Source: Candidatus Omnitrophota bacterium
Lineage (GTDB): Bacteria; Omnitrophota; Gorgyraeia; Gygaellales; Profunditerraquicolaceae
Direction of reading: 5' to 3'
NCBI GenBank assembly: GCA_041651115.1
Contig: JBAZJY010000004.1
Coordinates: forward strand, 14,114-78,113
Length of the DNA stretch: 64,000 bases
A program made the position numbers and the translations under genes. This document shows positions 1 to 59,941 of the stretch, one piece after another. The number at the start of each line of letters is the position of its first letter. Position 1 is the first letter of the stretch. Below the pieces are notes generated by a model, which was given only the letters and a program-made list of their open reading frames with translations, made no database searches and was not told the origin of the DNA.

Positions 1-450
1 GCAAAAGAAATAAAGGATTTATGGAATATTAATCCCGATATACGTCAAGCCACCGCTGGCACCTTAATTAAATTAGGCTGGAAACCCAGCACTCCTGAAG
101 AAAAAGTAGCTTACTTAATTGCTAAAGAGGATGGCAAGGCTTTATTAGCAGATTGGGTGAATACAAAGAGGATTCTTATCGCCGACATTGGGAGTAATGA
201 TTATAGTGACTATAATAAAATAAAGATAGCGGTTGATGTTTTTGTGGCCTTGGGACAAGAAGAGATGATTGACTATTTGATAGATATTCTTAATAATTGC
301 GGAACAAAAGAAATGGCTGAAATCTATTTAAATTGTGGATATTATGAACTAGAAGAAGCAGCGATAACATGGGCGCATGATAATGGATATACGATTTATA
401 CTAAAACAGATAGTTATCCGGACGTTAGTTGGGGCAGTTGGCGTTCCGGT
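1..450 (+). other. HEAT or PBS-lyase-like helical repeats at the N-terminal part visible in the window
   Basis: The translation ...DIRQATAGTLIKLGWKPSTPEEKVAYLIAKEDGKALLADW... resembles the periodic 'd.VR..A..aLg.ig' pattern of these repeats. Confidence 0.3.
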
Positions 451-3400
451 GGTAGCTCGCCGGTTGAGTCTGTTGGATATTCACTGTTTCTCGTTGAACG
501 GTTCTTGAGGATCCGCGTCAGCAGGATAGGTTCAAAAATTTATAAGTGGGTCAGAGGGATCTTTACGGGCAGGCGGTTACAGATTAGGTCATATAGCCTG
601 CCGCAGCCATATAACGGTGGGTTTATCAGCAATATTGTGCTCAAGGCCGAACACTCCCGGCTGGGGAAATTCCTGGATATTTTTACCGCCGTCTGGAGCA
701 AGAGAGGAGATATCCCATGCTATGGACGGAGAATAGAATTCGTAGATGACATTGCCGCACGCCTGTATTACCTTACGGTTTATATGGAGAAAAGAGGAAG
801 CATCGGCCCAATCCTGAATTCTTTACAAAAAGTCAGAGATTACCCGAACAAGGAATTCAATGCCTTAAAGAAAGAACAATGGTTTATAGAGTGCGATATA
901 CCCAACACCAAAGAAGCGCGCGAGGCGTTAATCAGGATTCTGCCGGCGAATATGTTTATAATCAAAGAATTCCTTACTCCTCGTCCTCACTCCGGCAACC
1001 GCATGATGCGGATTACCATTGAGGCCGAAGCTCCTGCCGGCAGGTATACCAATATAGCTATACGCAGTATGCTGCATCAACCGCCGATAAGCGCAAGAAG
1101 GGTGCATATTGAATTGGATAAGCGCCTGATCAGCTATCTTGAGAATAATTTTATGGATAATCTTGTCAGGGCAGGAATGAGATTATCCCGAAGAGATAGC
1201 CGGCTTATCCGCGCGGCATTTACAGTCCTCTCCGGAAAGCTTAGCCTGTACAGGGAAGACCTGGAGAATTTTTACTTGAGCCATCCGATTGACGTAGCCC
1301 TGATGCTTGTCCGTCAATACGGGCTAAAGAGCATAAAATCTGTCCTGGGAGGTTTATTACACGATACAGTTGAAGAGGGCTTAAGCCTTGGGGAGATTGG
1401 GTCAATATTTGGCAAAAGCATAGCGCGTATGATTTTTTGGTTAAGCCGCAAGGGAGAGAAAAAGACTTTCCTTTCCGATTATAGGTATTTGAGAAGATAC
1501 CACCGGATGTTTATCAACAAAGCCGATATATCGCTGCAGGAAGCAATAATCGTTACCTTTATCAAAATGGCGGATAAGACGCAGAATTTAAGTAAATTGC
1601 CGCATGATGAGTTGACCCAGCTGAAGAATATTTATTCCGCCCTTGACCGTTTTCTGCCGTGTTTCCTGGAAGGCATTCCTCTTGATAAATTCCCACCTCG
1701 CCTAAGGGACAGATACTATAATGCAAACAATATATTTTTCAATACACTGATTTCTCAAGGCAGATCAATAGGGGCATTTGACGAGAATTTTATTATTAAT
1801 AAAGATAAGCTGGATTTGTATCTGGATAAAGTCATCCCTCCTGAGAAAAGAGAGAAATACGATCTAGAATTTTATCAAAATGCGCTCCTGCAAGTTAAGC
1901 AGCATTTGAGTTCACCTATCACAAATAAAATTTTCTCCGCGAAGAAAGCGATTTCTATTTTTCAACAGCAGGCTGTCAGCGGCAAAAGTATGAAGCGTTG
2001 GCTGGCCAGGCATTACCTTTTTTATGATTGCGCGCCAGCATATAACGATTATGAACATAGCGATGTCAGAATATTTGCGAGTTATATATATAAGCAAAAA
2101 ATTAAAGACATAAGAAGCACTTTGTTAAACTATGCGAAATATATAGGAAGAGGCAAGCGGATGGAACAGGTGCTTATCAGACGAAATACAAAAAAGAAGC
2201 TATATCCGCTTATCTTATGGATGGCCAGAGATAATAATATCAAGCAGGTAAGACAGAAAAGAGAAGGCAGGCTTTTTGGAGCCATTGACATTTCCGCAAT
2301 GGCTGCCGCAGACCTGCCTATATGGCCGGTGGACGAGCGAGGCAGTATTAGGCAGGACCTATTGGAATGGATATCAATAAAAGACAAGGCTCCGCCATGG
2401 GAATACTATAATGCAAAAAAGATATCCCTGTGTGAAACCCTCAAAGTCCAGCCGCAGCAATTGACTCTTGATTTCCAGTCTATTAGTTCTCCGGCAACGC
2501 AAATTAAAGAAGAAGAACTCTTGGAATTAGCGAAAGAAGGCATTTTAGAAAAGGTGATTACCAACCTTGGCCGCGGGCAATTAAGGCTTTCTCCGGAATT
2601 TTCGCGTTTTAAAGAGCACTACTACTTTGGCGGGATATGCGCCAATGAGGCAGACGGAGAAGCCCTGCTGCAGCGCGCCAGGGAGGCCATTAGCCTTTCC
2701 ATAGAGAGGATCTTTAAAAATACCGAAGTTTTCGGGCAGTTTAAGTCGGCGGTTTCCGTGGAAGACAAGTTGAAAAATACAATTATAGTTTTATTGGACA
2801 GGGCAAGGCAGGATAATTTAAGCAGTATGGAGATCTGGGAGATCGCATTGGAAATGTTACGCATGGTGATAGACGGCGATCCTGACGCGGAGATCAAACG
2901 GCAGTCAAGAGAAACAGGATTTTCTTTGTTGAATACATTGCAGCAGCAGGGAATAATCAAAGAAAAAGGCAACTCTTTGGAAACCTTGTTCAGAGTCGCA
3001 GCTTTAGGCAATACTCTGGATTTTACTAATAACCATATCGCAAGGAAATCCGCATCCGGCGAATTCATTCCGGAAGAGATACTGCTTGATCTGAACAACC
3101 CGGATTTCTTTAAGCAAAATGATATAACTAAAATTGAAAAGGAATTAAGAGAGGGAGATAAGACTATTCTTTACTGTTTTGATAATGCCGGGGAAGATAT
3201 CCTTGACCTGCCGTTTATCCGGGAAATGATAAACCTTGGCAATATTGTGTTTTTTGCAGGCAAGCCTCTGCCGGTGGCGAACGACGATACGGTTAGAGAC
3301 CTGAAAACTTTAAGGATAGACCAGCGGACCAGGCAGTTTATGGGCAGTTCCATGGATAAGATATGCGATATCGTATCTACAGGCACAAGAGGACTGGGCT

Positions 3401-6400
3401 TGGATCTGGCCCGCTTGGAAAAAGAAAGGGGTTTGGGTTATTGGTGGCCCATAGCCGATATTATTTTCTTAAAAGGCCATGCAAATTATATGACTGTCAG
3501 GCCGTTTATGCCTGTCACGGATTGCGTGTTTGTCGGCAAGGTAAAGTGGTCGCCTGAATTGAATAAAGGCGGGACAGTGAATTACGAAGACGGGGATTAT
3601 TTTGTGGAATATGTCCCTGCCAGCTCGCCTGTGAAGGAAGCTTATGAATGGGCGAGAAAATATGTTCAGGAATACCAACATAAAACAGAAAATAATGGAT
3701 CTTTTGATGGACTATATGGTAATCCCGAAAAGAAAAGAGCAGAGCTTTTGAGGCTTATAGAAAAACTCAAGAGCATAGGTAATGAAACACTTCGGAATGA
3801 GTTTAAGAATGAACTTTATAATGACATCATAAGCTCGCCGATGCAAATTGCCAAAAAGCCTTACTGCGCGGTATTCATTCCGGAATTTTCCGGCAGAAGC
3901 GCGATTATGGAAATGGTAGCGCAGGAAGTTAAATGGCAGAATATGTCATTGGTAAAATTGTGGGCTGACCATATGCGCTTTAGAATAGCGAATGGAAATA
4001 AAGACGAATTAAGCCTTAAGGAATTTTGTAATTTACCGCTCAAGGCCTATCTGGAAAATCTGTCCGTAAATAAAGGCCTTTTGGCAGGCCTGTCTTTCTT
4101 GAGCCATTATGATTCTTATATTTTCTATCATACTATGCAGCAGGCGGGTTTTGAGCTTAAGGCCGCGTTCTTTATTGATTTAAAAGAGGAAGATATTTGG
4201 AAACGCTATAATAAGAAATTATTGTCCAGCACCAGCGGCAGCGCTCATATAAACAGAGCAACTTTAGAACGGAGAATAGATAATTTTAAATATTTTTCGC
4301 TTCCGGAGAAAAAGAAACTGGAAAAAGCCGGGATAAAAGTAATTAATATTGAAGGTTTATTCAGCCGTAAAATAATAGTAGATAAAATTATCTCCGGGGT
4401 CAGGTCCGTCTCCAGCTCGCCTCTTGGATGCCGCGTATGTATCACAGGCCAACAGATAAGAAGGCTGCAGCCTGTCCTGAAGAATGTCCCCTCTGCAGTA
4501 AATTCCGGAATTAAATTAGTTATTTTTGACAACGGCAATGTAATAATGAATTTTAATTTTAGGCGGGCTGTGCAGGAACTTTCGCGGCGCTTTGCAGTAG
4601 AGCCGGGAGTCGTATCGGATTTTATAAGAAATGTTGATTGCGATAGCGGAAATCCGGTTACTAGATACGGCTCCAGGGAAATATCCAGAGAGCAATTAGT
4701 AGCTGCATTTAATCCGTGGCTGCGGAAACACAGCCGCTCGGCAGACGTGAGACAGGGCAGGAAAGTATTAAGCGTAGCCGAATTCACTGATATATGGAAC
4801 AGTATTTGGACAAGCATGAATGTAAGGGTCGTTATGCTGATGTATAGATTAAGGCAGCAGGGGTATAAAGTCCACGTACTTTCCAACTTATCCGAGCTGC
4901 ATTATGAATATGCTTCCGAAATCTATACCAGGTATCATGTTTTAGATGATTTCAAAAAAGATTTTTACTATAAGAAATACTGGAAAACTCAACCGGAAAG
5001 CTATCGTGAAGTGCTCAATGATGCAAATATGCTCCCCGGAGATACGTTGCTCATTGATGATTTGCCGCGTAACATAGAAGTAGCGCGAGCAGCCGGCCTG
5101 CATACATATTTATTCAATAAATATAATTCCCGGAATATACGCGATATCGTAAATATATTAGGAATATTTTCCAGCTCGCCGATTACTATTTTGGAACTGC
5201 AGCAGGCAGCGGAAAGGAACGCGCAACAGCCTTATGTCGGAGCGGCTTTACGCAGGTTAGCGGATATCGTCTTTAAAGTAAAAGCCCTTGGCGTAATCTT
5301 ACTCAAAAGCGGGTGGCTATTCAAAGAGCAACGGTTGAAGTTTAGCCCTGCCGATCTAGAGCGGCATCTGGGCCTGTTTTCTGACTCGGATAGGGTTTTT
5401 GTGTCTAAACTTAAAGACGGTTACGTCCTAACCAACAATAAATACTTGAGACCAGTACTTAAGGAGTGGGGCATACGTAAAGAAGAAATTAATTGGTTTA
5501 TCGGCCATTACCGCAAGGACAATATCGGAGAGATCGTACGTCAGCTTAAATATGAATATCCGGCCTGCCTTACTAAATTAGCAGGCCTTATTATGAACTG
5601 GAACCTTACGGTTTATTCGCTTTTCTTTAAACGTTCTGACTTACAAAGGGAAGGCCTGCCGGTTGATACCTTAGCCGAAGGACTTAAGCGGCTGATGAAT
5701 GATATTAACAGCGGAATAGAGGATTTTACCGGATTGGTTCCGCAGAACGCCATAGACCAGGTGAACAAAGCGGTAAAAAACCTAGAACCTGCCCTTTTGG
5801 CTTTAGAAGCAAACAAGAAGCCGGAATTTAACCTTCTTGAGTTGACTGTCTGTACTCAATTTGTTTCCGCGCTCCTGAACGTATTCAAGGAACAGAAGCG
5901 CCTGTTGGCTGAAAAGATAAAAAGCGACCGCGGAACGAATCGTTATTCCTTTGAGGCGCGCTATTTTTCTGTCTTGCAGCAGGGCTATGCCAGCGTGGGC
6001 CTCTGGGGCATCCAGGTGCTTTCCGACAGTCCTAAAAAGTATGATAATTTATTTGAATTTTTCCGTTCTATTGACCACCAGATAGATTCTGAACTGGATG
6101 ATATTGATCTTTTTGAAACAGTTAACCTACTGATCCGGCAGGTCCAGGAAGGCCTGGATAAGGAGGCTTTTGTTAAAGGCATGGATTCTCTATCCGGCAG
6201 CCTTAAGAAAGTCAAGGATCCCTATAAGATTATGGCGGCTATCCTGTTGGGCTATGCAAAGGGCTTGTTAGAGATTAACCGGCTTAAACAGGGGACTGGG
6301 CTTTTCGAATTTGCCCAGGAGATGCTGACTTTGAGAGTTAAAAACTGCTGGGGTATCATCAATACCCTTGACGGCGCCTGGGCTGAGGGGCTGCGCGGCC

Positions 6401-9400
6401 ACATCAAGAAGCGTAATGATTATCTTAAAGGTAAAACAATAAAGATCCTGCATGACTTAAAATTCAGGCATTATAAATTCGCCCGTAAGGTTCTGAAAGA
6501 GGATATTATAGACGAAGCGCATTTATCCTTTATCCGCGATCCAGAATTTGCTATGTTTGAAAAGCCCTTTGCACTATTAAATAAATCTTTTTATGAAGAT
6601 AGCACATTGAACAAACTTGAAATTGCGCGGGCGCACCAGTTATTCTCTCTTTTCTTTGATATGGTAATTATTAGTGAGTTGCGAGGTAAATTTATGATGG
6701 ATTACCGTAGGCTATTTGTGAATTCCCGTAAGCCCGGAGAAGCCCGTCTTTCCAGACAAGAAGCATTTAAGCAAACATATTTTAAATACCGCGATTCTTC
6801 CAGGGCGGTATTATCCAGGCCGGAGTTTTATTTTTATCTATTCTGGCAGGCGGCCTTTATCCCGGTGCATACTAAAGAAGATGATAAGCCGGTTAATCCC
6901 GTATTTTCAGCCCTGAACAGGTATGTCTTATCCGGCCAGATTAAAGAAAAAAGATATAGTAGGCTTACCCGGCCGGAAATGCCGAAATTAAGCGAAACGC
7001 AAGCAGCAGAATTTTCCGCAATAGGCGAGCTTTATAAGGAATGGTCGCAGGAGTATGGGATTACCAGGGCCGGGCCGCAAGCCAGCTCGCCGCTTGATTC
7101 TTTGGATTTCCCCGTGGTTATCATCGGCTCGTCAGACGGCGGGAAAGAAGCGATCCCCGCCATTTTAAATCCTGTTTTGAACAGCAAGCCCGATTTGGGT
7201 TTCAGCTGCATTCTTGCCGCCCATAATTTTAATACCAACTACTATCCTTATAAAAAGATCTCAAGAATAATATTGCAGAATATAGCAGATACCATCCAGG
7301 CAGACGTTACTGAAATATCCGATGGTATGCCGGTAGAAAATAACAGGATATATATTGTCCCTCCGATAAGCAATATTTCGCTTAGCAAGGAAGGAAAATT
7401 TGAAGTTTCCGGGATAAGGATTGATTTTATTAAACGCAATCCCAGTAAGAACATCATTAACATTGATTTCTTACTGGATAGCGCAGCCGAGTTCTTCCGA
7501 GATAGGCTGATTGCGGTTATAGCCAGCGGAAACGGCAGCGATGGCAGCAGAGGGTGTTCTTATGTGAAGCTTTATGGAGGCAAGATTTGGGCACAGCGCG
7601 ATGCGATAGAAAAGGCCATGCCTACCAGTGCCCTCAAAACATGCCTGGTTGATGAAATAAAGTTATCCAGTTCTCCGCTAAAAGCAAAAAACGCGATCTT
7701 CTGGTTATTTTTCGCAGCAATGATCACCTTAGCCTTTAAGCAGGCAAGGGCGCAGGAATGGAGCGCTTATCTTTTGGATAGTAACCATAAAGCCAGGGTA
7801 AGAAGCCTTAACTTGACTCACAGCGACATTGCCATAAGCGTGGCTCGGCTTTGGTCAGCGCAGACAGATATTACAACCGTTGATATACAAGACAGCAAGA
7901 AAAAGTATCACATTAATTACATGAAATATGCGGATGCGCTCCAAAAGATAGAAGAAGATCTTGCTGCCGGGAAGAAATTGATCGTAAATATGAATTTCGG
8001 CTCTTACCTTGATTTTTATTCTTTTGAGCATGCCATTTTGGACCTCTACCTTAAATATCCGCATACCTTAATCCTGGTTGCTCCCGCAGGTAACGGTAAT
8101 ACCGATTATCCGATGTATCCGGCAGCCTATGATTTTGTCTTTTCAGTTACCAGTGTTACGGCTGGCTCCGGCTGCTATGTTAAGACAGGCTATGGTAATT
8201 ATGGCGCTTTCGTGGACATAGCTGCCATTGCGCAATCAGAAGAAGGAATGAGCAAGAAAGAGAAACAATATATGCAAGCAACCTGTTTTGCCGCGCCGCA
8301 GGTCGTGGGATTGCTGCTTGAAATATTCGCCGTCAATCCCGTTTTAACTAAAGAAGAAGCCGTAAGGATCATCCAGGATACCGCTGATCCGATAGAAGGT
8401 TACGATTTTAAAGTAATGAATCCTGAGCGCGCTATTAACGAAGTTAAAGCAAGGCTGCTTGCCGCCAGCTCGCCGGTTGTTAGGTATGGCAGCCAAATTA
8501 CGGAATGCCGATTATTGAGAGAAGAGGAAGCAAGGAGCAGGCTTAAACAAGAATTTAATTTTGATTATCCGCTTGATTTAATGAAAACAAATAGGCCTGG
8601 CGGAGCAGCGCCTCGCCTAGCTTCAAATATTTATGCAAAATTAAGCGCCGTAGAGAAGGAATTTCCCGGTTTTAAAGTACCGAAAAAATGGCTCGGGTAT
8701 AACATTAGCAGGATTATTAATAATACAAAACGCAAACTGCAAGAACAGGTAGATAAGCCAAGGCGAGAACAAGAAGCGGTATTAAGGCTTAAGGCAGAAC
8801 TTGGTTTTATTTATCCGGACTCATTAAAACCAAGTGACAGACCAGGGGGGAGTAACTCTATTTCTGCTTCAAAAGTTTATGAAAAGCTAAGCGCTGTAGA
8901 AAAAGAGTTTCCCGGTTTCAAGGTACCTGCAAAATGGATCGGAAAATGGGATGTTTCAACTCTTGTAGAGAGAGTAAGAGACAGGATGTCAATAAAGGGC
9001 AAAGATGCAGTTAAGAGATTAAAGGACGCATTTGATTTTAATTATCCTGTTGATTTAGTGCCTACTCATCGTCATTATTTTAGCGCCACAGTTATTTATA
9101 TAAAATTTCTTGAAGTTAACAGCGAATTGCCTGGATGTAAGATATATAAGTCACTATTGAATTTATCTTCGGAGGCGATCATTTTTAAGTTATCTGCGAA
9201 TATGGCGGGAAAAACTTATGATAAGAAAATTGAATATATTAAATTACTCAATAAGGTATTCGGTTTCGCCTATGAAGAATTATCGCCTCGTATCAGGGCT
9301 GAATTTAAGCCAAGAACGATATTCCGTCGCCTTGTTTATATAGAAAAACGGTTATTAAAAGAGCCTGCCCTGAGAATACTCGGGATCAGATGGAAGAACA

Positions 9401-21400: not shown

Positions 21401-24400
21401 ATGCATTATCTCGGGTCACAGGGGTGATTAAACTTCCCGGCATATTCAGAAGATTTTCTTTTTCATCCAACGGCTGGACTATTGTTTCTCCTTCCGGAGA
21501 AGAAATGCCTTTATACGAAGCCATTAAGGAATTTTCAGAAAATGGGAAGACCTTGAATTTTAACTTATGGGAACAACAAAAATGTCTTATCAGCTCGCCG
21601 GTAGACCTTAAAGAAATAGGCGGGGTTATACTTGCTCCTTCGCCGCTGGCGGTCAAGGATAAGAGCCGGCTTCCGGAAAAGATAAATGAATGTTTGGCGG
21701 CGCAGCGTAATTGCGGAATAATGTTGCCCTGGATACATTGGGACATTATTGAAGGCCATCGTTCGGATATAGTTGCTTGCGACAATCCCGAACCAACCGT
21801 AAATATACTTACGCCGGAATTATTGCAGGGTATATCCGGCGCAATCAAAGATGTGCACCTTATGTATACCCGGCCAAGTGAAAAATTCATTCAGAGATAT
21901 ATTAATGCCGGTGCCCACATTGTGACTTTGCATTGGGAATCTTTCAGGTATAAGAAGAGGCTTATTGAAAGGATCGAATATGTTAGAAAGCAGGGGTGCC
22001 TGGCGGGTTTGGCTTTCAATCCGAGTAGCGATTTAAATGCGATAATCAATTTTCTCCATGACCGCCGCCTGAGAGGGAAAGTGGACTTATTGCTGCCGAT
22101 GAGCATACTAGCCGGAGCGGCTAACCAAAAATTCATTGAGAGTGCCTTGATCAGTATCGCTAAGTTAAGAAGATTATTTCCGAAATTATTCATCCAGGCT
22201 GACGGCGGGGTAAACCTGGCAGAGCCAGAAGGAAGAGAAAGCACAGCTAAGAGGGTAATCCGGGCAGGCGGGCCGGATAAATTATTGTTAGTTACCGGCG
22301 GCGCTTTCTTCGGTAAGGGCGAACAGATCCAGGCAGAATTTGAGCAAGCCATCCGGGATTTTCAGGCTGTAATCAAGGAAAGCCGGGTGGAAGAAATCAA
22401 TATCAGTAAAGGCCAGGATTACTATTCCCAGGTAGAGGCAATATCCAAGCGTATATCTGCAAAAGAACTTGGCGGCGCCATTATCACTACCGATTCAGAA
22501 GTGACCAGCATGGCTGCCGGCGCTATTGCCAATAAATTTAAAGGAGTGCGCGCTTCGGTTTGTAGGAACGTCAATCAGGCGGAATTTACCCGTAAACATA
22601 ATAATTCAAATATTTTAATTGTAAGAAAAAAAGATCCCAAGAGAGAAGAAATAATTCTGGAATGGTTATTGGATGAATTTGAAGGCGGCAGGCACCAGCG
22701 CAGGGCGGAAAAGATTGAGCTGGATAAGGTTTCTGATGAGAAAATTGCAGGAGAGATAAACGCGGATATTATTCCTATAGCCTCTGATCATGGCGGTTTA
22801 GAATTAAAGGAGTTTGTAAAATCAGAATTAGAAGTCATGGGGTATAAAATATTTGATGCTGGTACCTATAATAATGAATCTTGCGACTATCCTGATTTTG
22901 GCAAAAAGGCGGCACGTTTAGTTTCCAGGGGCGTGGTAAAAAGAGGTATAGCGATCTGCACTACCGGAAGAGGCATAAATATGGTGGTGAACAGGTATCC
23001 CGGGGTGATTGCCGCTCAGTGCGATAATCCTTATCAAGCCAGGAAAGCGCGGCAGGAATTAGGCGCCAATATGCTGGTTATGGGGCAGAAATATTTGTTG
23101 GATGAGCAAGGTAACATCAACATTAAAGCTGTCCGAAGTATATTAACGGAGTTCCTTAGACAAAAATATAATTCTACCGAAGAAAGGAATAGAGAGGTTC
23201 GTGACGCGTTATCCTTCAGCTCGCCGGTAGGATATTATCCGGCAAGGCCGGTTGATTTCGGTGAAATCGGGCGGTTCCTTGGCCGCATCAAGAATAAAAC
23301 CAACGGGCTACGGCTGGAGGATTTTGTTTTTGAAAGATTCAGCGAGAAAACCCTTTTCTTGTTGCATTATCAAGGGCCCGCATATGAGGTGGTACGGCAG
23401 GCAGCTTACAATGCTCTGAACTCGCTGGATTATTGCCTGCGCACCCGGCCGGCTCATATTGCCTCCTCGCGTGTTTCCGGATTGAGCGGGGAAATATCCG
23501 GTATATACGAAATAATCAAAAGAGGCAGCGTCCTTACGCAAACAAAATTAGGAAAATTAGAGGCAATAAATCCCGTATTTCGCAGCAAGGATTTTACCGC
23601 CAAAGAGTTTGACGCTATCAGTACCAACAGCGTATTTGAATTTAAATTCCACCTTAGCCTGCATAAGCTTTACCAACAGGTGATCGGGATGGATTCGGCG
23701 AAACAGCCCCACTTAAAGGTCCTCAGCCGTCCCGAATTCAGCCATATAAGGAATTTGGTCTATTTCGGTGAGAATGATAACGGGCACGTGGTCAAGGCAA
23801 TTAACCTTTTTGTAGAAAAAAAGCCAAAAATTCTCCCGCGACTTTCTGTTTCTGAAGACGGCGGCGTAGCGCTAAAGCTATTTTTGCACGGCAGCGAGGT
23901 ATACGATTTCTTAAGTTCAAAGACGACGCTGGACCTGTTTAGCCGGGAACAAAACCGCAGATTCAGCAGGGGCTATCTCTCCGGGTATTTAAGGACAAAG
24001 CTGCCGTATATGCGCCAGATCATAAACGGGAAAATCAACCGTCTCGGCGTAGAAGATAAATTTGACGTGATCATTGCCGTTTCCAATACCTGTCCGGCGG
24101 ACTATCTCCGAGCCAAAACCCTTGCCAGTTCTCCGGTAGGAATACGCTTCCGCGTAGATAAGGTATTAAAAGAAGTAACGTTCGGAGAAGATATGCAAAA
24201 CGGCGCCCTGCGCGCCTGGGAAATAAAGTTATTTATTTCGTCGGTAATAAATATGGACAAAAGGCTGCATGACTATCTTGACTGGATAACCGATAATCCG
24301 GGGGAAGGCAGATACTATGTATGCGGATACTTTGATAATGAACCTGTGCCTGTGGGATTCATAAAGGAAAGCTATTTTGATTTTGGGAATATCGGTGCCG

Positions 24401-27400
24401 AATATAACCCTACTGGAAATGAAAAAACTTCTGTTAGGATGAGCGGGAAGATCCTGGTTAAAGAATTCACCAGTTTATTTGATACGGCTGATGCCGCAGT
24501 TTTTTTTGAGATTCTTGAGTCCGGATATTATCTGGGCTCACTCGGGGAAAGAGGCTTTATTTGCCAGGAGAGGCCTTTATATTATGAAGATGACCTGCTG
24601 TTCAGCGTTGAACAAGACAAACAGGACCGTAGTATTTTTACTCTTCAATTGCGCCTGCCTAATGGCGGCCGAATTAGTTCCCCGCTTTCTTTTGGGGCAG
24701 CGGCGCTTATATTCTGGTGTGCCTGTACGGCGATGGTGGTCCTTATTATTAATATTTCTTGTAACAATCCCCGTAAAGAAGCCAGAGTTCCGATACAGCC
24801 GGTAAAGAAAAAAGATGATGTTGAAGAGGCGCCGGCATTAGCTGCGGCAATATTCATCCTGGAAGGAGTTATTGCTGACACTAAACGGCTATACCGTAAA
24901 GCCTGGGAAGAGATGCTGGGTAAAAAAAGGGCAGGCTTGGTTACGGGGCTTAGCGACACAAAAATATCCGATGTTTATTCTAAGATCGCCCAGATTAAAA
25001 TACTGAATATTAATATTGATGATATGGAGTTCCTTTGCAGATTAGATAATTTAATTGATGAGAGAAGGTCTTGGGTTAAGCCTTACCAAGACGCTGTGGA
25101 TTTAATCAGGGATTTTAAAATCAGAAAGGTCAAATGCGGGGTGGCTTCGGAGGGAGGCTCGGCGCATAAAATACTGGAAAAACTCAAGGTTGCAAAGTTT
25201 ATAAATACAACCGTTACTGCCCGGGAGACTCTTCGTCCAGATTTGGTCCTGGCTGCTGCCAGAGAAATGGAGGCGCCTTTTGAAAAGACAGTAGTCATCA
25301 GTGATAATCCCATAGACATCCATGCAGGCAGAAAATACGGCTTTGGGCTTTTAGTCGGTGTTAACCGCAAGGGAATTTTTTACAAGAAGACGTTTTTGCG
25401 CAGCGGCGCAGACCTGGTCCTTAACGATCTTTCTTCCATGTCCACCATCAGCCTCGGCTATGAATTGAACCATAAGGTTAAGGCGGATAAATCCCGCCGT
25501 ATAGTTAGCTCACCGATTAGAAATTATAACCGCAGGGATTTTATCGGTTTATCTGTTATGGGCGCTTTAGGATTTATATTTGGAAGGCAGATGCGCGCTG
25601 CGGGTTATGGCCTTAAGGAAGAGATGTTCAGCTTGCCCAACCAGAAGAAGACCTACCTTTCTTATTTAAGCAAGCTGGCTTTTAAACAGTTAGATTTTGG
25701 CAGCGATGATGATTTTAACCGGCTGCAGTCATGGAGAATAGATCAGGAAAAATTATACAACTCCTATTTTATGTCCAATGCTCCAGAACCCGTAAGGCAA
25801 AGCATAAAAAATCTATCCTGGTTTTTCCCGGAAAATAACCCCGGTTATTATTCTGAGAAATCATATCAGCCGGGCACCGACCACCAGGCTTACGATATAT
25901 TTATTGATGAGAATATGCCGATTTCAGCTTTTTGCGGCGGTGTAGTCGTCACCGCCCTTGATGGCTGGCGTTATGAAAACAAAATATGGGTTGAAGGTAC
26001 TGGCCTTGGACAGAGGGCAGGCAATGGCGTCCTTATATATAATCCCATTATTAAAAGCTATACCTATTATGCGCACTTGAACAGGATAGATGTCGCGGCC
26101 GGAGATATAATTAACGCTTCATTCCCGATAGGCTTGATAGGTCAGACCGGGATCAATGCCCGCAGGAAACAGCCGCATCTACATTTTGAATATAAAGCAA
26201 TGCGGGGCAGGAAGCTGGTCTCCTTACGGTTTAATGAAATAGACGGAGCCGGTTTTACATCTGCTTTTAGAATCGGCAGCTCGCCGGTGGTATTCAAGTT
26301 TATGCCGCAGAAATCCTTAAAGAGCGGAGAGAAAGTTCATCTGGCCGGCGATTTTAATAATTGGAATCCCGATGAGTATAAGATGGTCTTTAATCCTGAT
26401 GATGGCCTGTGGGAGAAATCACTGGATATAGCCCCGGGAATTTACGAATATAAATATTTTATAGACGGACAATGGATTTCTTATCCCGAAGATATTTTTA
26501 ATCCTCGCAGGATAGAACTGGACTGGCATAAGAATTACTGGATAGAGGTAAGCGCTCAGCTTGATGAGCAAGAGGAGCCAGGCGCATATTTTGACCGCCG
26601 GGAACTGGGAATACCCCAAGAATATAGCAAAGAAGGGAATCTTTGGGGATTTTTTAACGAGCGGATGTTCGACAGTGGAATCGGCCACCCGCTTCATAAA
26701 TTTGGTTTATCCAAAGCGAAGGTTTGTGTTGATGCGGGATGTGGGACAGGTTATCAATTCATGCATATAATCAGGTGGTTTTGTCCCGAGACTCTTTACG
26801 CCGTAGAACTGGATAAGACGCGCCTTAAACAGGCAGAGCGCTGGCGTAAGTGGAGCAGCAAAACGAAAATGGTATTTCTGAATAAAGATATTTCCAGGTC
26901 ATTCCTGCCTAAGGGTGTTTTAGCCGATTTAATTATCTGTTCCCACGTTATTCAGCATGTCCCTACAGATATTGCCCTGGGGATCATTAAGACATTAGTT
27001 AATTCATTGCGCCCGCGGGGGATCCTGGTTATTTTAGCCGCGCATTCAACCAGCAGGCAGGATAATTATGTAGTGACATTTCCCGGCAAATCGTTTGCTT
27101 ATTTTACGCTGCCCGGAGTTAGTGAAGAATTTTTTAATCAGGTTGTCAGCAGTAAAATTGACAACTCAGGAATGCTTCCCACGCACCGGTTTCCTTATTT
27201 TTCTCTTAAAGGAATGTTTGAACAGACCGGTTTGGAAGTGTTATCTTTCGATACATACCATAGCGAAGGCCAATACGGGACACCTTCTGAACATAGGTTC
27301 GTTTATGGGATTGACCGATGGAGTAATGAAGAAAAGGATGCGCACGGTATGGATCTGGTGATGATCGGCAAAAAAATATCCAGCTCGCCGGTTAATCTTA

Positions 27401-29721
27401 AGGGTATCCGGGCCGTTTCTGGAAAATATGTCCAGGCGGTGTTTAACCTGTCTGAGGATAATTCTTTTGTATGGCCGTATTGGCGCAACAATAATCTTTT
27501 CGCATTATTTTTCGCCAGACTGTATTTCCCGAGAGAGAACCAAAAAGAAATCTTGGATGCGGCAATATCCGGCAAAAATAACTGCGCGTACAGCCTGGTT
27601 GGTTTTAAGGATGCCAGGTTTGAATTGATTTTGCCCCTGGCAATTTGCACGTCCGGGAAGAACCGGGCTCAAGAAAAATGGGTGAGTTTGCCCAATCGTC
27701 TTAGCATAGAGTGTGAGCGTGCCGCTTCTCTTCAGGCATGGTACCATCTTAATAATCTGGATATCGTCAACGGAATAACTCCGCCTTCATTTTTTCATGC
27801 GCGCGAATTCAGTATTTTCCCGTGCGCCGCGCAGGTAGAAGAGTCAGCCAAGAACGGCAGCGGAAAATTGATGATCCGTTTCCCCCATCTGAACACCGGC
27901 AGCTCTTTTATTAAAACCAGCTCGCCGGCAGGAGAAAATAAAAAAAGCATACCTTCAGCTTCATTGTTAGCGCAGGTTTTGCGTGATGCCGAATTAGCGG
28001 AACGTTTGTTAAGAGAAGGCAAATACTGGAAGGATGATGTTAAAGCGATAATAACGGCATTGGATTCGATTATTTCCAATCTAAACAAACTGAAGAAACT
28101 TGATTCAGCCTATAGCCTTAAAGAAGAAATCGCAAGGTTAGCTCGCGGGCAGTTAAGGAATCCCGGCGTTCCCGCCCAGCGCATCCGCAACGCAATAGCT
28201 GAAATGGTCAGCAGGATATCCAGCTCGCCGGCGGAAAATAGTGATCAAGGTTTTATAGAATACCTTAAAAAGCTTTATAGTTACAGCAAGCACGTCAGCG
28301 TAGAACTTATTGATGGCCGACACTACCTTCAGATAAGACATCCGGATATCTGTCCGAATATGAGATTTACTCATATGTATAAAAGCATACTCCATTTATT
28401 CGGCGACAAGGAAAAATATCTTCAGCAGGTAGCCAGTTTCTTCCTGTGCAGATACTATTTTGGAAAAGGATTCCGTATCGGCCTGGACGTAGTAAAAAAA
28501 TGGACAGAGACCAAGGACATTAATTCAGTAGAGACTAAGAGCTTTAAAGAAGGGGAAGAACATTCCTTACTGTTATGGACTTATATTGTCAGCAGCCCGG
28601 TTATGACAACCGGCGCCAGGGTGAGGACGCAGCTGGAGCAAAAAAGAGCGCTAGTATTATCCTCCCTGTTTTTAATATTCTTTTCTTTCTTCTTATTTTT
28701 CGTATCGGTTCCGGCGGCTCAAGCTCAACAGGCCAATATGCCTTCATCGGCTGCTGTAAAAATAGAAGCCGAGACCGTTAAGAGCCTGTCAGAGTCATTA
28801 AAGACAAGCGGTATCGGCATTAAGATAGTTTTTTCTATAGATGAATGGAAGGAAATCTGCGAAGATAAAAATTTAGATAGACCAGCAGCGTTTTACGACA
28901 GGCAGGAAGCATTGCTATATTTTTTTAGAGGGTATTATTGTCCGTTTACATTTTCCCATGAAATTACGCATGCCTTGAAGGATAAGTATTTTGGACAGTT
29001 AGAAGAAGATATATTTTTAAATACTGCCGATTCTTTGGGGCTACTGATTTTAAAAACCAAAGATTGGCAACTTATAGACATTTTTTCCAATATGTATGTC
29101 TATTATGCTTGCGATTATGATAATCCCGTTAAAGATGTTTGGTTTCAATATAATTTTATAGATAAAATGGCCCCGAGCAGTTTTTCCAACGCCGGGCAAG
29201 AGTTGAACAGGGTATTCGCTACGGAATTATCATTTGAGCAGGTTGGCTATATTTTAAACAGCGATGAATTGATGCTTAATAATTTACTGATAAGTTTTAC
29301 GGCCGTAGTTAATCATGCCTTTGATGAAATATTTGCCGGTATTTATAGCATATCTTTGGACATGGAGGGCCGGGGAGGAAAATTTTCTTTAACAAAAGAA
29401 GAATTTGATAAGTTTTTCGGCAAGCCCCTTGAATATCCATATAAAGATAGGATAGATTACAATAATGAAATAAGAAAATTTATTATCAGTATACAGAAAT
29501 ACCCGGGAATTAAAAAGTTCTTAAACAACTATTTTATTCGGTTGGGCTTACCGGCACGACAGGGCTTTCAAGTATTCAGTTCCCCGCTCAATATTCCTTC
29601 ATTAGGTGCCAGGGTGAATACGCAGCTTGAGCAATGGCTGTTGGGTAATGAAACTCTGGGCTTAAGAAGAAAATTTTGGAGCGGTATTTTTAGCGGTATT
29701 TTAGGCGGTATAAACCCGTAG
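1..29721 (+). CDS. Giant modular multidomain protein, 5'-partial. Frame 1 is open from nucleotide 1. The ORF caller's start at 157 is an internal GTG. At least 9,907 codons lie in the window. The stop codon is TAG at 29719-29721.
   Basis: The six-frame track shows one 9,854-aa ORF. I translated positions 1-156 in frame 1 and found no stop. The other five frames contain only short ORFs. Recognisable domains are listed as separate entries below. Confidence 0.7.
   Translation, partial: [9906 protein letters not shown]
1282..1460 (+). other. HD domain resembling the (p)ppGpp hydrolase domain of RelA/SpoT
   Basis: [51 protein letters not shown] matches the RelA/SpoT HD signature (HP..VA...L...aaLLHDvvEDt...I...FG..va.lV). 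Confidence 0.5.
3070..3540 (+). other. Possible DUF89 or ARMT1-like metal-dependent phosphatase domain
   Basis: [22 protein letters not shown]... is a DNAGE-type motif, and a ...KGHANYMTV... segment lies downstream. The similarity is weak. Confidence 0.2.
4414..5172 (+). other. HAD-superfamily hydrolase-like module 1
   Basis: The C-terminal HAD motif IV, [25 protein letters not shown], is present. Motif I reads IFDNGNV and lacks the second Asp. Confidence 0.45.
7084..7668 (+). other. CheB-type methylesterase-like module
   Basis: [18 protein letters not shown]...IYIVPP...[16 protein letters not shown]...GGKIWAQRD resembles the CheB catalytic-domain signatures (vvaIGaStGGpeAL ... GMGsDGa...Gg.tiAQd). 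Confidence 0.5.
7930..8466 (+). other. Subtilisin (peptidase S8)-like C-terminal half with the catalytic Ser replaced by Cys
   Basis: LIVNMNFGS...[28 protein letters not shown]...[19 protein letters not shown]. The subtilisin 'GTSMAAP' signature appears as ATCFAAP. I found no HGTHV-type His motif upstream. This module starts with the signal-peptide-like stretch [27 protein letters not shown]. Confidence 0.45.
8540..9700 (+). repeat. Protein-level repeat array A, with motif (E/D)FxFxYPxxL...PG....IS/SA..Y.KL..V.KEFP.FK.P..W. There are at least 4 copies.
   Basis: [18 protein letters not shown]...[40 protein letters not shown]...[32 protein letters not shown]... and [10 protein letters not shown]... 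Confidence 0.55.
9840..9990 (+). other. Lys/Glu-rich low-complexity or coiled-coil linker
   Basis: [32 protein letters not shown]. Confidence 0.4.
10130..10450 (+). other. Sigma-70 region-2-like segment A
   Basis: [32 protein letters not shown]...[40 protein letters not shown] matches the sigma-70 region 2 pattern (dLvQEGnlGLi.AvekFdp..G..FstYA...Ir.ai.r). Confidence 0.45.
12187..13236 (+). other. Aldose-1-epimerase (galactose mutarotase-fold) like module
   Basis: [35 protein letters not shown]...[10 protein letters not shown]...LHGM...[10 protein letters not shown]. This is the Gly-His-His-Pro-[FY]-[FY] motif typical of the YeaD/YihR epimerase-like family. Confidence 0.45.
13760..14460 (+). 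repeat. Protein-level repeat array B, of the same FxFxYP family as array A
   Basis: [67 protein letters not shown] and [41 protein letters not shown]. Confidence 0.5.
14920..15230 (+). other. Sigma-70 region-2-like segment B, a paralogue of segment A
   Basis: [34 protein letters not shown]...[44 protein letters not shown]. It is followed by a domain paralogous to 10700-11325 ([32 protein letters not shown]... versus [36 protein letters not shown]...). Confidence 0.45.
16108..17496 (+). other. DHH-family phosphoesterase-like module, of the NrnA or RecJ-like DHH fold
   Basis: [24 protein letters not shown]... and a DHH motif in NIIDHHSLE, ...ICLDTDSF. Confidence 0.45.
17497..18000 (+). other. 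Multi-pass hydrophobic (transmembrane-like) stretch inside the giant protein
   Basis: [21 protein letters not shown]...[12 protein letters not shown]...[14 protein letters not shown]...[13 protein letters not shown]. These are 4-5 hydrophobic helices. Confidence 0.4.
19447..20895 (+). other. Possible ATP-grasp module resembling glutathionylspermidine synthase or the circularly permuted type
   Basis: Similarity is weak: ...[17 protein letters not shown]...YIFAEHIQP...[24 protein letters not shown]... Confidence 0.25.
21592..22350 (+). other. Ribulose-phosphate 3-epimerase-like TIM-barrel module
   Basis: [15 protein letters not shown] (compare RPE 'laPSiLsaDf')...[10 protein letters not shown]...[11 protein letters not shown]...[10 protein letters not shown]...IQADGGVN. 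Confidence 0.45.
22440..22640 (+). other. Degenerate partial RpiB-like segment. The conserved His-Asn is retained and the Cys is replaced.
   Basis: [51 protein letters not shown] compared with the RpiB pattern iCGTGiGmsiaANKvpGiRAA...HNdaNvL. Confidence 0.3.
22768..23100 (+). other. Ribose-5-phosphate isomerase B or LacAB-like module
   Basis: [34 protein letters not shown]...[47 protein letters not shown]. The position of the RpiB His-Asn reads Glu-Leu. Confidence 0.55.
24676..25506 (+). other. HAD-like module 2, of the beta-phosphoglucomutase type, with a substituted nucleophile motif. It is preceded by a lipoprotein-like hydrophobic N-terminus.
   Basis: Motif I 'FDxDGV' appears as [13 protein letters not shown], with D changed to I and D changed to E. 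The C-terminus reads [18 protein letters not shown]. The module starts [26 protein letters not shown]. Confidence 0.4.
25507..26277 (+). other. M23 (LytM-type) metallopeptidase module with a Tat-like signal peptide at its own N-terminus
   Basis: Immediately after the SSP junction the sequence reads [23 protein letters not shown], a twin-arginine RRxF motif followed by an h-region. The M23 motifs are [10 protein letters not shown] (HxxxD) and [19 protein letters not shown] (HxH). Confidence 0.55.
26278..26500 (+). other. CBM48 or AMPK-beta glycogen-binding-domain-like module
   Basis: [69 protein letters not shown]. Confidence 0.5.
26700..27100 (+). other. Class I SAM-dependent methyltransferase module
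   Basis: Motif I is [12 protein letters not shown]. The post-I acidic residue is in AVELDK, and motif IV-like LRPRGILVI is present. Confidence 0.55.
28591..29577 (+). other. Module carrying its own Sec-type signal peptide followed by an HExxH zincin-like motif
   Basis: [30 protein letters not shown] has an n/h/c-region and an AxA cleavage site, at about 28640-28735. Downstream is ...[16 protein letters not shown], with the HExxH motif at 28956-28970. Confidence 0.45.
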
Positions 29722-50911: not shown

Positions 50912-51601
50912 ATGAAAGAAAAGATCCTGATCGTTGATGATGAAAAAGACATAGCCAGAATGATCGACTATAACCTTAAAAAAGAAGGTTTCCGGACCGC
51001 GCTTGCCTATGACGGCGAAGAAGCCTTAAGGTCGGCAAACAGGGGCGGCATAGATCTGATACTTTTAGATCTGATGCTTCCCGGCAAGGATGGCCTGGAA
51101 GTATGCAAAGCGCTTAAGAATGACGCTAAAACCGCTTCTGTCCCGGTAATCATGCTGACTGCCAAATCTCATGAAGCGGATAAGATTGTTGGTTTAGAGT
51201 TGGGCGCCGATGATTATATTACCAAGCCATTCAGCCCGAAAGAACTGATCGCACGCATCAAGGCGGTGTTGCGCCGCGTAAAAGGCAAGCAGGAATTGCC
51301 CGAAATATTAAAGATCGGCAGCCTAATGATAGATTTTTCCAAGATCGGCGTAAGCGTAGGTAACAAGCCGGTGGAATTAACGGCAAAAGAATTTGAGCTG
51401 CTTAAGGCGCTGGTTAAGTCAAGGGGTAGGGTAATGTCCCGCGACAGCCTTTTGGATGCAGTCTGGGGTTTTGAAAACGCGCTGGAAATCCAGACCCGTA
51501 CCGTAGACGTGCATATAAGGACTTTACGCAAAAAATTAAAAAAAGAATCAGGGCGGATAATCACCGTCAAGAATTACGGCTACCGGTTTGAGGCCGGGTA
51601 A
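50912..51601 (+). CDS. phoB: OmpR/PhoB-family response regulator
   Basis: REC domain (ILIVDDE...[14 protein letters not shown]...) plus a winged-helix trans-regulatory domain (...[14 protein letters not shown]...GYRF). Confidence 0.8.
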
Positions 51602-51620
51602 GTAACGCCGTTACTAACAT

Positions 51621-53396: not shown

Positions 53397-53408
53397 TCAC
53401 CGTAGGCT

Positions 53409-53461
53409 TTACACAGATTTTACATTAACTTAATACAGCCATAACATAATACAGGTATAAT
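53409..53461 (+). promoter_or_regulatory. Candidate Pho-box promoter for pstS: TTACAC-N5-TTACAT at 53409-53425 and a -10 TATAAT at 53456-53461
   Basis: These are direct hexamer repeats with 11-bp periodicity in the style of the Bacillus PhoP TT(A/T/C)ACA boxes, plus TAATACAG...TAATACAG direct repeats at 53431-53454. Confidence 0.35.
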
Positions 53462-53470
53462 AATGGCTAG

Positions 53471-53550
53471 TTAGGGACGGTTCTCAAGCTAATCGTAAAG
53501 TGTCCCTAAAAAGGGGACACTTTAGCTTTAAGTTGAGAACCGTCCCTAAA
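53471..53550. repeat. Solo about-80-bp palindromic (MITE/REP-like) element in the pstS 5' leader: ttagggacggttctcaagctaatcgtaaagtgtcccctaaaaaggggacactttagctttaagttgagaaccgtccctaaa
   Basis: It is almost perfectly self-complementary, and its arms are the same as the IS ends at 45982-46612. Confidence 0.65.
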
Positions 53551-53567
53551 ATAAGAAAGGAGAAACT

Positions 53568-54419: not shown

Positions 54420-54426
54420 ACTTGCA

Positions 54427-56878: not shown

Positions 56879-56881
56879 CAT

Positions 56882-57637: not shown

Positions 57638-57649
57638 AGGCGGGAGGCA

Positions 57650-58321: not shown

Positions 58322-58350
58322 CTTCATTCTCGGGATCAGTGGAGTTGAAA

Positions 58351-59043: not shown

Positions 59044-59065
59044 GATCCTTTCGCGGAGTTTAAAG

Positions 59066-59119
59066 TTCACAGAAAATTCACATTACCTTAATGATTTTGT
59101 AACCTTCCTGCAGTATACT
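59066..59119 (+). promoter_or_regulatory. Candidate Pho-box promoter: TTCACA-GAAAA-TTCACA at 59066-59082 and a -10 TATACT at 59114-59119
   Basis: It is a perfect hexamer direct repeat with a 5-nt spacer, and the -10 lies about 30 bp downstream. Confidence 0.4.
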
Positions 59120-59156
59120 CCTCTTGAAGATGGAAAAACAATTCAAGAGGAGCCAC

Positions 59157-59861: not shown

Positions 59862-59924
59862 TATCCTTTCGCGGAGCTCAAGGATCAATCAAATGCGAAG
59901 CGCCGGAGGCCGCATTTGATTGAG

Positions 59925-59941
59925 TTCACAGAAAGTTCACG
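59925..59941 (+). promoter_or_regulatory. Third copy of the hexamer direct repeat, TTCACA-GAAAG-TTCACG, upstream of the receiver, porin and pstS2 unit
   Basis: Read from the sequence. It lies in an intergenic region that is a diverged duplicate of 59044-59123. Confidence 0.35.

Follow-up and report, generated by a model that had tools for sequence, protein, structure and literature searches.

Whether a giant bacterial gene is used as one chain or is cut, and where, are open questions named by the papers describing such genes, and they are raised again by a 64,000-nucleotide stretch of a Candidatus Omnitrophota genome (positions 14,114 to 78,113 of contig JBAZJY010000004.1, assembly GCA_041651115.1), hereafter called the window. 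On its forward strand, frame +1 stays open for 9,906 sense codons, beginning at base 1 and closing with the TAG at 29719-29721, the 9,907 codons of the initial annotation having included the stop. At a stop probability of 0.062 per random codon, such a run has a chance of ~10^-275. Over the same interval, the longest stop-free run in the other five frames is 218 codons, in line with the 60-213 aa open reading frames (ORFs) first reported there. Positions 1-156 are likewise open in frame +1, and on the source contig (ENA ERZ27247363:k141_2001242, 99,565 bp) the gene is called at 23,923 residues and 71.8 kb. Because this gene call reaches the contig end, the gene extends at least 42 kb further upstream, which bears out the initial annotation in that it continues past the window edge. 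Based on the stop scan and the contig gene call, the interval 1..29721 (+) holds the 3' 9,906 codons and the TAG stop of a giant ORF of at least 23,923 aa.

The most informative feature of this ORF, which the initial annotation missed, is a recurrent in-frame motif. The tripeptide Ser-Ser-Pro (SSP), the commonest of the ORF, is found at 29 sites where 2.1 would be expected; the next residue is invariably Val, Leu, Ala, Ile or Met and the preceding one small or aliphatic. These sites, here called junctions, have spacings of 19-957 aa, delimit 30 segments in the window (median ~260 aa) and yield the consensus [A/S/G/T/I]-S-P-[V/L/I/A/M], with C-TCG-CCG as the preferred encoding. In its DNA form (AGY-TCN-CCK), the motif is strictly in register, all 28 AGYTCNCCK matches inside the ORF being in frame 1. 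The exact 9-mer AGCTCGCCG is found 15 times, always in frame 1 inside the giant ORF, and nowhere else on either strand of the 64 kb. Conservation spans ~13 nt (yC-AGC-TCG-CCG-GT), dropping to zero on both sides, and the downstream proteins (10.4 kaa) contain a single SSP. No tRNA, Rfam family, ribozyme, intron, hairpin, inverted repeat or attC-like repeat is associated with the junctions of the window. We propose, tentatively and at a little under an even chance, that the gene encodes a cellular polyprotein cut at these junctions.

All junctions are on the + strand. The 9-mer AGCTCGCCG forms junctions 1 (454..462, GG-SSP-V), 5 (3832..3840, SSP-M), 7 (5173..5181, SSP-I), 8 (7084..7092, SSP-L; a CheB domain begins from profile position 1, 9 residues on), 10 (8467..8475, SSP-V), 12 (11383..11391, SSP-V; it closes a 19-aa spacer), 15 (16108..16116, SSP-A), 16 (17497..17505, SSP-V), 17 (19447..19455, SSP-V), 19 (21592..21600, SSP-V), 20 (23218..23226, SSP-V; at the RpiB C-terminus, as in the related locus L037), 24 (26278..26286, SSP-V), 25 (27382..27390, SSP-V), 26 (27919..27927, SSP-A) and 27 (28222..28230, SSP-A). 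The form AGTTCTCCG is used at junctions 3 (2485..2493, SSP-A), 9 (7669..7677, SSP-L; a Sec-type signal is next) and 21 (24127..24135, SSP-V), and AGCTCGCCT at junctions 4 (3622..3630, SSP-V), 6 (4414..4422, SSP-L) and 11 (11326..11334, SSP-L). Junctions 11 and 15 are each an orthologous boundary common to the related proteins P0002 and P0013. Two junctions, 22 (24676..24684, SSP-L; a transmembrane (TM) anchor is next) and 29 (29578..29586, SSP-L), read AGTTCCCCG. The remaining ones are AGTTCACCT at junction 2 (1909..1917, SSP-I), AGTTCGCCT at junction 13 (12187..12195, SSP-A), AGTTCACCG at junction 14 (13237..13245, SSP-V), AGTTCGCCG at junction 18 (20896..20904, SSP-V), AGCTCACCG at junction 23 (25507..25515, SSP-I; a twin-arginine translocation (Tat)-like RRDFIGL signal is next) and AGCAGCCCG at junction 28 (28591..28599, SSP-V; the sole AGC-AGC variant, with a Sec-type signal next). 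The hexapeptide SSPLGC is found at two junctions (aa 1472 and aa 3776), and the 19-aa mini-segment LGCVVATRSSAFNVLASSP lies between two junctions at 11335-11391.

The junctions coincide with protein boundaries. None of the 29 falls inside a Pfam domain match, such matches covering 25% of the residues (P = 2e-4), and 12 of the 14 neighboring Pfam domain pairs are parted by a junction; no random placement among 20,000 did as well on both counts (joint permutation P < 5e-5). The matches to CheB, DHH, aldose epimerase and HAD open at profile position 1-2, a few residues past a junction. For segment 18, the best homologues are free-standing Omnitrophota proteins of 537-577 aa, with 43-45% identity. 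One of them, a 577-aa protein encoded on a 31-kb contig of GCA_018817585.1 in ordinary gene surroundings, has its own start, signal peptide and stop, and the homology of the window to it extends from ~30 residues past the upstream junction to ~5 residues short of the downstream one. Several units equivalent to complete proteins are present in one ORF with a conserved short site at every unit boundary, two of the traits by which viral polyproteins are recognized.

The families involved agree largely with the enzyme list of the initial annotation, which had described unrelated globular folds strung in one frame rather than structural repeats. Above the curated Pfam cut-offs, two HAD domains, CheB methylesterase, Peptidase_S8, aldose 1-epimerase, DHH, a circularly permuted ATP-grasp, RPE, RpiB/LacAB, M23, CBM48/AMPK1_CBM, several methyltransferase models and an ARMT1-like domain absent from that list were recovered. 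HD_4 (24.8 bits vs 27.2) and Sigma70_r2 (22 vs 24) stayed below the cut-off, and the former HExxH module is reduced to a bare HEITH motif in a region without Pfam family match. The membrane-spanning stretches also reported there are present as hydrophobic, membrane-type segments.

Modules do not appear to be translated separately. An ATG, GTG or TTG stands at the first codon of only 4 of 29 segments. Moreover, a start codon with a Shine-Dalgarno-like sequence (in frame, -3 to +25 codons) is present at 3 of 29 junctions vs 20% of random positions, which gives no support to internal translation starts at the modules. Since the modules are devoid of start codons or ribosome-binding sites of their own, the whole chain is translated as one polypeptide from an upstream start. 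Within this chain, Sec-type signals open segments 10 (…LAFKQARA/QE) and 29 (…VPAAQA/QQ), a twin-arginine-like NRRDFIGL precedes the M23 peptidase of segment 24 and a TM anchor precedes the second HAD domain in segment 23.

The same grammar recurs in related genomes. The sugar-binding protein encoded downstream of the giant ORF matches 80 loci at 70-80% identity, nearly all titled Candidatus Omnitrophota/Omnitrophica (species-representative genomes), and module homologues are also annotated as Omnitrophota. Upstream flank was sufficient at 34 of these loci, and in ~26 of them a giant frame is followed by a ~230-aa frame and then by an ATP-binding cassette (ABC) importer; these giant + frames are stop-free for 1,500 to >3,000 codons, run off the 5' end of the locus and stop shortly before the ~230-aa frame. 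The importer homology and this synteny show that the open frame of the window is the 3' third of a giant gene from Omnitrophota, set in a conserved neighborhood. In ~13 of 26 related giant-gene tails, [ASGT]-S-P-[VLIAM] is enriched 10-27-fold, in a form that depends on lineage: SSPV, SSPA (L036) or ASPL(A) (L042 and the sister genomes L034 and L039). Motif density reaches 2.34 per 1,000 aa in giant frames vs 0.11 in ordinary ORFs of the same loci. In the tails which lack the motif, k-mer enrichment revealed no alternative junction motif.

P0002 (NCBI MFC1709684.1), a Candidatus Omnitrophota protein which fills its 21-kb contig, contains SSP 38 times vs 1.9 expected and SSSP 22 times vs 0.16. 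Its six Pfam domains (HD, M48, methyltransferase, FBPase N and C, metallophosphoesterase) each fall within a single segment, FBPase_C ending 6 residues ahead of a junction, and a textbook Tat signal, SRRDFLK, directly follows another (KKSSSP/ISRRDFLKALPF). It also carries clusters of 5-49-aa spacers bounded by junctions, two of which are duplicated (TVAGVGELT[ND]PVVAAKITTTQISSP). At the C-terminal boundary of a shared module, the motif is aligned at an identical offset in four copies, namely the two window paralogues, P0002 and P0013 (33-41% local identity); at this orthologous boundary, P0008 has ASSA.

Other related giants show further recurrent elements. P0015 (JGI, 3,947 aa, 85.7-kb contig), which has a relative of the sigma-like module, contains S[SP][AS][HR]F[AG]E ~12 times (FAE 9 vs 1.15 expected), which may be the junction code of another lineage. 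L047:3-9473 (+), without SSP code, encodes complete sigma-70 factors, with regions 2, 3 and 4 each present twice (E ~1e-21 to 1e-23); L080 is among the giant frames without SSP code that embed complete sigma-70 factors, and the giant frame of L077 ends in a Sigma70_r4 domain. The last ~60 codons of L034 and L039 and the C-terminus of P0008 have a terminal peptide in common after the last junction (IGxRNVPRL…SLLG…GS…FSL..LDD..IRNF.LRYKYARP), shared by giants with unrelated upstream content.

Comparison of close relatives points to the same positions. Sister genomes such as L034 and L039 encode sugar-binding proteins 87-95% identical and have flanking DNA 80-88% identical, but their detectable DNA homology begins at the 3' end of the giant gene and ~9 kb inside it are unrelated, which means that module content was replaced and did not diverge. 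In L034/L039, the breakpoint lies exactly on a junction, whose shared core CCTCGCCGCTGG opens the conserved terminal module. Between junction-rich tails, homology is nearly absent even in sister genomes (70 of ~3,050 residues alignable for L034 vs L039), and junction-poor tails have homologous stretches of 600-1,500 aa in common. L037 and the window possess three common modules in a different order, each bounded by junctions, and RpiB is free-standing in L037 and joined to RPE in the window. As judged from these alignments, the junction is also a boundary for the evolutionary gain, loss and swap of modules.

Constraint on the junction operates at two levels. At the protein level, changes at the flanking positions stay within residue classes and are encoded by many codons, and S-S-P persists in genomes such as L023 and L077 despite scrambled codons. 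At the codon level, TCG encodes the central Ser in 63% of junctions vs 14% of non-junction Ser-Pro in the same genes (Fisher 1e-25) and the Pro is CCG in 70% vs 30% (1e-15). Set against the synonymous background, TCG accounts for 0.71-0.74 vs 0.14-0.16 of TCN (p down to 2e-47) and junction CCG for 0.67-0.83 vs 0.34-0.42; in the ASPL lineages, GCC (0.80 vs 0.26) and CTG (0.64 vs 0.14) are also favored. The wobble position of the AGY codon preceding TCG-CCG is at background while those of TCG and CCG are strongly biased. Common descent of the junction with slow synonymous decay is disfavored by this asymmetry, which points to selection on specific codons or nucleotides at junctions.

In the mechanism we propose, the gene would be an in-frame string of gene-sized cassettes, each equivalent to a whole ordinary protein, and a protease would cut the chain at the junctions during or after translation, after Pro or between Ser and Pro being the candidate bonds. 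Cutting would free individual cytoplasmic enzymes and make Sec or Tat signals N-terminal, hence usable, while co-translational release would let a gene of 24,000-147,000 codons yield products even when few ribosomes get to its end. We favor this polyprotein reading because a strict four-residue motif with lineage variants is typical of protease recognition and not of linkers, because Sec and Tat signals located past junctions function only at a free N-terminus, and because cytoplasm-type modules (RPE/RpiB, ATP-grasp, S-adenosylmethionine (SAM)-methyltransferase, sigma-like) and export-type ones (M23, S8-like, HExxH) alternate without the TM segments that an intact chain would require. In addition, the short junction-bounded spacers resemble those of viral polyproteins. 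The resemblance to the polyproteins of picorna-, flavi-, nido- and retroviruses in fact goes further, as these also consist of one ORF with many unrelated units the size of mature proteins, no internal initiation signals and short junction motifs combining small residues with proline or aliphatic ones. In contrast, the present gene is on a cellular chromosome and 10-100 times longer, its junction is also conserved at the codon level, its units turn over like cassettes and no embedded protease has been identified. The initial annotation had listed a polyprotein among its alternatives; the junction motif adds support to this part of its claim, cleavage itself being held at the tentative strength given above.

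Several observations weigh against cleavage. We infer the cut, the enzyme and the bond from sequence. No protease module is common to the junction-bearing giants, and the proteases of the window (S8-like, M23, HExxH) all have export signals. About 11 related tails are devoid of the motif, and about half of the syntenic giant tails lack it yet embed whole proteins such as sigma-70. Signal-like N-termini follow 7% of junctions, compared with 3.7% of random positions and 1.8% before junctions, a weak trend which is not significant when pooled over genomes; a general enrichment was thus rejected and the signals were kept as case evidence alone. A protease site has no need of so strong a nucleotide-level bias, which suggests a further or a different function. 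Since several modules have altered catalytic motifs, speaking of ordinary enzymes may also overstate their activity. The avoidance of the motif by ordinary proteins, as expected of a protease site, was uninformative (observed/expected 0.57, control motifs 0.22-1.99). Finally, such multi-enzyme proteins have been read as single membrane-anchored polypeptides (Nielsen & Lui 2026, 10.64898/2026.06.07.730766).

This published reading is also the alternative that survives best, in the form of an uncleaved, membrane-anchored mega-scaffold of enzymes or pseudo-enzymes in which the junction serves as an inter-module hinge, as a programmed translational pause, or both; we consider it doubtful, while granting it real weight. 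It is consistent with the many TM-like segments, with the lack of an identified protease and with the motif-less giants that embed whole proteins without any junction. As a pause, two slow NCG codons followed by a proline would give each module time to fold, and the UCG and CCG bias, next to a neutral wobble in the preceding AGY, is compatible with this function. At the time the junction codon is read, however, the last 30-40 residues of the module are still inside the ribosome tunnel. A hinge, for its part, needs no strict four-residue motif with lineage-specific variants, and junction-bounded spacers of 5-49 aa make little sense as hinges. Tat and Sec signals just past junctions cannot function internally, and an uncleaved chain would face a topology conflict, as the M23 peptidase and the SAM-methyltransferase next to it would presumably end up on one side of the membrane.

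Alternatively, the primary function could be at the nucleotide level, the ~12-nt core (yC-TCG-CCG-[GC]T) serving either for recombination or cassette exchange in frame or as a periodic signal for transcription, which we regard as improbable. S-S-P would then be mainly the translation of the core, and a transcript of at least 70 kb would need a periodic signal for its completion. The codon bias of junctions across genomes with unrelated flanking modules, culminating in ASPL lineages with all four wobble positions fixed (GCC-TCG-CCG-CTG), speaks for such a role. So do the wholesale swaps of junction-rich tails between sister genomes with 80-88% identical flanks, the L034/L039 breakpoint exactly on a shared junction core, the always junction-bounded re-ordering of modules between L037 and the window and the duplication of modules and spacers within one gene. 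Nevertheless, some genomes keep the amino-acid motif with scrambled codons, and the residues next to S-P are exchanged only inside physicochemical classes, by way of many codons. Moreover, neither inverted repeats nor structure surround the core, the extended site required by tyrosine or serine recombinases is missing, and the window contains no recombinase. A parallel case, integron cassette arrays, also consists of hypervariable gene-sized units at a fixed chromosomal position which differ between close relatives and have a short core at their boundaries. Unlike these arrays of separate promoterless genes, the units are here fused in one frame, and neither attI nor attC hairpins are present: instead of attC imperfect inverted repeats of 60-140 bp with intI, conservation covers ~13 nt and no integrase is found among the annotated genes. 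A nucleotide-level role and cleavage may coexist as two layers.

Peptide-bond skipping of the 2A/StopGo type at S-S/P, which would release modules without a protease, could account for the proline at the critical position, the favored codons or tRNAs and the missing protease, but is very improbable, as no conserved peptide is present upstream of the junction (information ~0 beyond position -2, compared with ~18 constrained residues and D(V/I)ExNPG/P in 2A) and, to our knowledge, 2A does not work on bacterial ribosomes. Least credible of all is an artefact, that is a mis-assembled, chimeric or engineered concatenation, as the initial annotation had envisaged, or a recoded genetic code hiding stops: the locus does come from a single short-read metagenome contig and is slightly AT-richer than its neighbors, but the same architecture and synteny are found in ~26 independent metagenome-assembled genomes and one NCBI protein, the motif (≤13 nt) is far below the last assembly k-mer, 141 judging from the contig name, genes of this kind are published from complete long-read genomes (Nielsen & Lui 2026), modules are homogeneous in third-position GC content (GC3 0.46 +/- 0.05) and match the codon usage of the flanking genes (relative synonymous codon usage r = 0.82), which rules out a chimera of different genomes, and the giant frame has no in-frame TAA, TAG or TGA while all downstream genes close with normal stops, so that no recoding is needed. 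The difference from the neighbors is steady, with a GC3 of 0.46 for the giant gene (1-29721) vs 0.54 for 29762-63609.

The modules themselves, all on the + strand, can be described in order. Segment 4 (2494..3630) is an ARMT1-like damage-control phosphatase module (Pfam E 7e-25), segment 7 (4423..5181) a HAD hydrolase-like module matched by Pfam over profile positions 1-191 of 191 and segment 9 (7093..7677) a CheB methylesterase-like module (Pfam E 4e-23). Segment 10 (7678..8475) combines a signal peptide with an S8 subtilase-like module (Pfam), in which ATCFAAP takes the place of the subtilase G-T-S-x-A-x-P, a Cys replacing the nucleophile Ser. The aldose 1-epimerase module is segment 14 (12196..13245, Pfam) and the DHH phosphoesterase module segment 16 (16117..17505, Pfam). 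Segment 17 (17506..19455) has three TM-like helices and no family match; segment 18 (19456..20904) is the circularly permuted ATP-grasp whose free-standing homologues were described above. In segment 20 (21601..23226, Pfam), a ribulose-phosphate 3-epimerase is followed by tandem RpiB/LacAB halves, the first of which keeps RKHNNSN and GGRHQRR and misses the Cys-x-Thr motif, while the second keeps SDHGG and ICTTGRG but has QELGAN. Judging from these complementary motifs, the tandem halves resemble a pseudo-heterodimer joined in one chain whose single complete active site would recall that of LacA/LacB.

Toward the end of the gene, segment 23 (24685..25515) consists of an N-terminal TM anchor and a HAD-like module (Pfam, hydropathy). 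Motif I is degenerate in both HAD-like modules, with FILEG in 24685-25515, where the nucleophile Asp is missing, and FDNGN in 4423-5181; some modules may thus be pseudo-enzymes. Segment 24 (25516..26286) carries the Tat-like signal and an M23 peptidase with intact HxxxD and HxH, segment 25 (26287..27390) a CBM48 and SAM-methyltransferase module (Pfam), and segment 29 (28600..29586) its Sec-type signal and the HEITH-motif module. The last 44 codons (29587-29718) repeat the N-terminus of this preceding module (GARVxTQLEQ…, then a basic stretch and after it a hydrophobic one) before the stop, and look like a truncated duplicate module.

Segments 11 (8476..11334, 953 aa, paralogue A) and 15 (13246..16116, 957 aa, paralogue B, 34% identical to it) are giant-gene-specific modules and the only paralogous pair found by self-BLAST of the giant ORF. 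Both (~955 aa) have ~90-aa internal repeats (…EF.F.YP…) and weak similarity to sigma-70 region 2 (Sigma70_r2), and in their C-terminal half a G-S-x10-S-D-x-N-L pattern which we take to be reminiscent of Pol-beta-type nucleotidyltransferases. An exhaustive HMMER search with the 957-aa module returned 29 relatives among 1.84 billion representatives, nearly all within proteins of 1,300-7,000 aa, from a library in which very long or contig-truncated proteins are apparently missing, as the longest match has 7,051 aa and the 23,923-aa product of the window itself was not returned. Three relatives (P0001, P0006 and P0007) have an apparent Met start, a signal-like N-terminus and many GG[ND] repeats. 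A word-indexed homologue search with the sigma-like module gave no match, not even to the protein of the query, in an index from which giant or truncated proteins are apparently missing; a genome scan with the alignment of segments 11 and 15 gave 277 pattern matches and no relative, and segments 18-20, scanned against metagenomes, matched just one locus, an ordinary stand-alone RpiB (L082).

Downstream of the giant ORF is an ordinary, co-directional bacterial gene array. It starts with a PilZ-domain gene (29762..30448, +), whose position is that of the ~230-aa frame kept in related genomes, and the sugar ABC importer (30530..33608, +; binding protein and two permeases, 70-80% identical to 80 Omnitrophota loci), which begins 800 nt downstream of the giant ORF. 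Further genes encode GH-like TIM-barrel/TPR, ROK and LacI proteins, a B12-dependent ribonucleotide reductase, MnmG and a Pho regulon with two Pst systems. The interval 50912-63609 is unusually rich in phosphate functions, with PhoB/PhoR, PstS-C-A-B-B, PhoU, three successive PhoB-like response regulators (58339-60613) and a second PstS-PstC.

With respect to the giant genes already described, ORFs >20 kb are common in Omnitrophota (Seymour 2023, PMC10066038), and the present one, uninterrupted over 29.7 kb in the window and 71.8 kb on the contig, exceeds this length. Three architectural classes have been distinguished among proteins of up to 147,155 aa, class 1 being that of "multi-enzyme metabolic clusters" (Nielsen & Lui 2026). 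With a length of at least 72 kb, the gene belongs to this published multi-enzyme class: ~15 distinct families are present in 9.9 kaa, each in at most two copies. As in class 1, it is an Omnitrophota ORF of tens of kb, sequence-unique between genomes, with TM segments and many Pfam families of which none dominates, including methyltransferase, HAD, HD and sugar-metabolism enzymes; the published description differs in having no junction motif, cleavage or module-boundary grammar. No Pfam families of adhesin-type tandem repeats or of C-A-T or KS-AT-ACP megasynthase modules are present in the window. The gene is thus not the new kind of megaprotein suggested by the initial annotation, and the premise that giant bacterial proteins are usually repeat arrays is out of date given the multi-enzyme giants in print.

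Archaeovorins, which reach 85,804 aa and adjoin carbohydrate importers (West-Roberts 2023, 10.1101/2023.11.21.568195), are the other relevant comparison. Like these giants, whose type sequence comes from Velamenicoccus archaeovorus (39,678 aa), the present gene is from Omnitrophota, contains methyltransferase and S8-type peptidase modules and numerous TM regions (at least 7 strongly hydrophobic 19-mers by Kyte-Doolittle, a crude predictor) and neighbors carbohydrate import genes, here the sugar ABC importer, proximity to these or to type II secretion genes being an archaeovorin trait. Its length, at least 71.8 kb and running off the contig, compares with a survey threshold of >90 kb. Divergent SecA-DEAD or preprotein-binding domains, an archaeovorin trait, are absent at E < 0.01 from the 9.9 kaa of the window (Pfam; the upstream 14 kaa lie outside it). 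Glycosyltransferase (GT), glycoside hydrolase (GH) and NUDIX domains are likewise absent by Pfam from this visible third of the gene, which does contain methyltransferase and peptidases. The N-terminal end, where archaeovorins have a C39 or S8 peptidase near a signal peptide, lies beyond both the window and the contig; further inside, the gene does encode an S8-like module preceded by its own signal peptide. Cleavage into several products has been proposed for archaeovorins, the missing cleavage points having blocked analysis (West-Roberts 2023); a candidate site is defined in the present gene.

Collectively, a giant multi-enzyme ORF is known biology and the junction motif is apparently its new part: the junction code, its codon-level conservation and the junction-delimited turnover of modules are apparently undescribed in the open-access and bioRxiv texts on giant genes. 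The motif makes the questions of one chain or several, and of where it is cut, testable, as it predicts the exact neo-termini to seek in proteomes. It also offers a rule for the informatic cutting of giant ORFs into foldable, annotatable units and a starting point for phylogenetic profiling aimed at the protease. Should in-frame exchange be driven by the nucleotide core, this would explain both the assembly of giant genes and their uniqueness to each genome; if neither cleavage nor exchange holds, the gene is an ordinary member of a known exotic class.

Few known genes are as strange as the giant genes of Omnitrophota, whose products reach 147,155 aa. In the fullest version of our proposal, which is unlikely although worth stating, a large Omnitrophota clade would encode a sizeable share of its proteome as polyprotein, with [small]-S-P-[aliphatic] as the cleavage code and its core doubling as a cassette-exchange site. 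Were cleavage confirmed, we would know of no other cellular organism with a polyprotein strategy on a comparable scale. If this were true, enzymes of central metabolism, sigma factors and exported hydrolases would all be encoded in polyprotein, and whole proteins could be inserted, deleted and shuffled without loss of frame, which would combine the logic of viral polyproteins with an integron-like evolution, undescribed for any cell.

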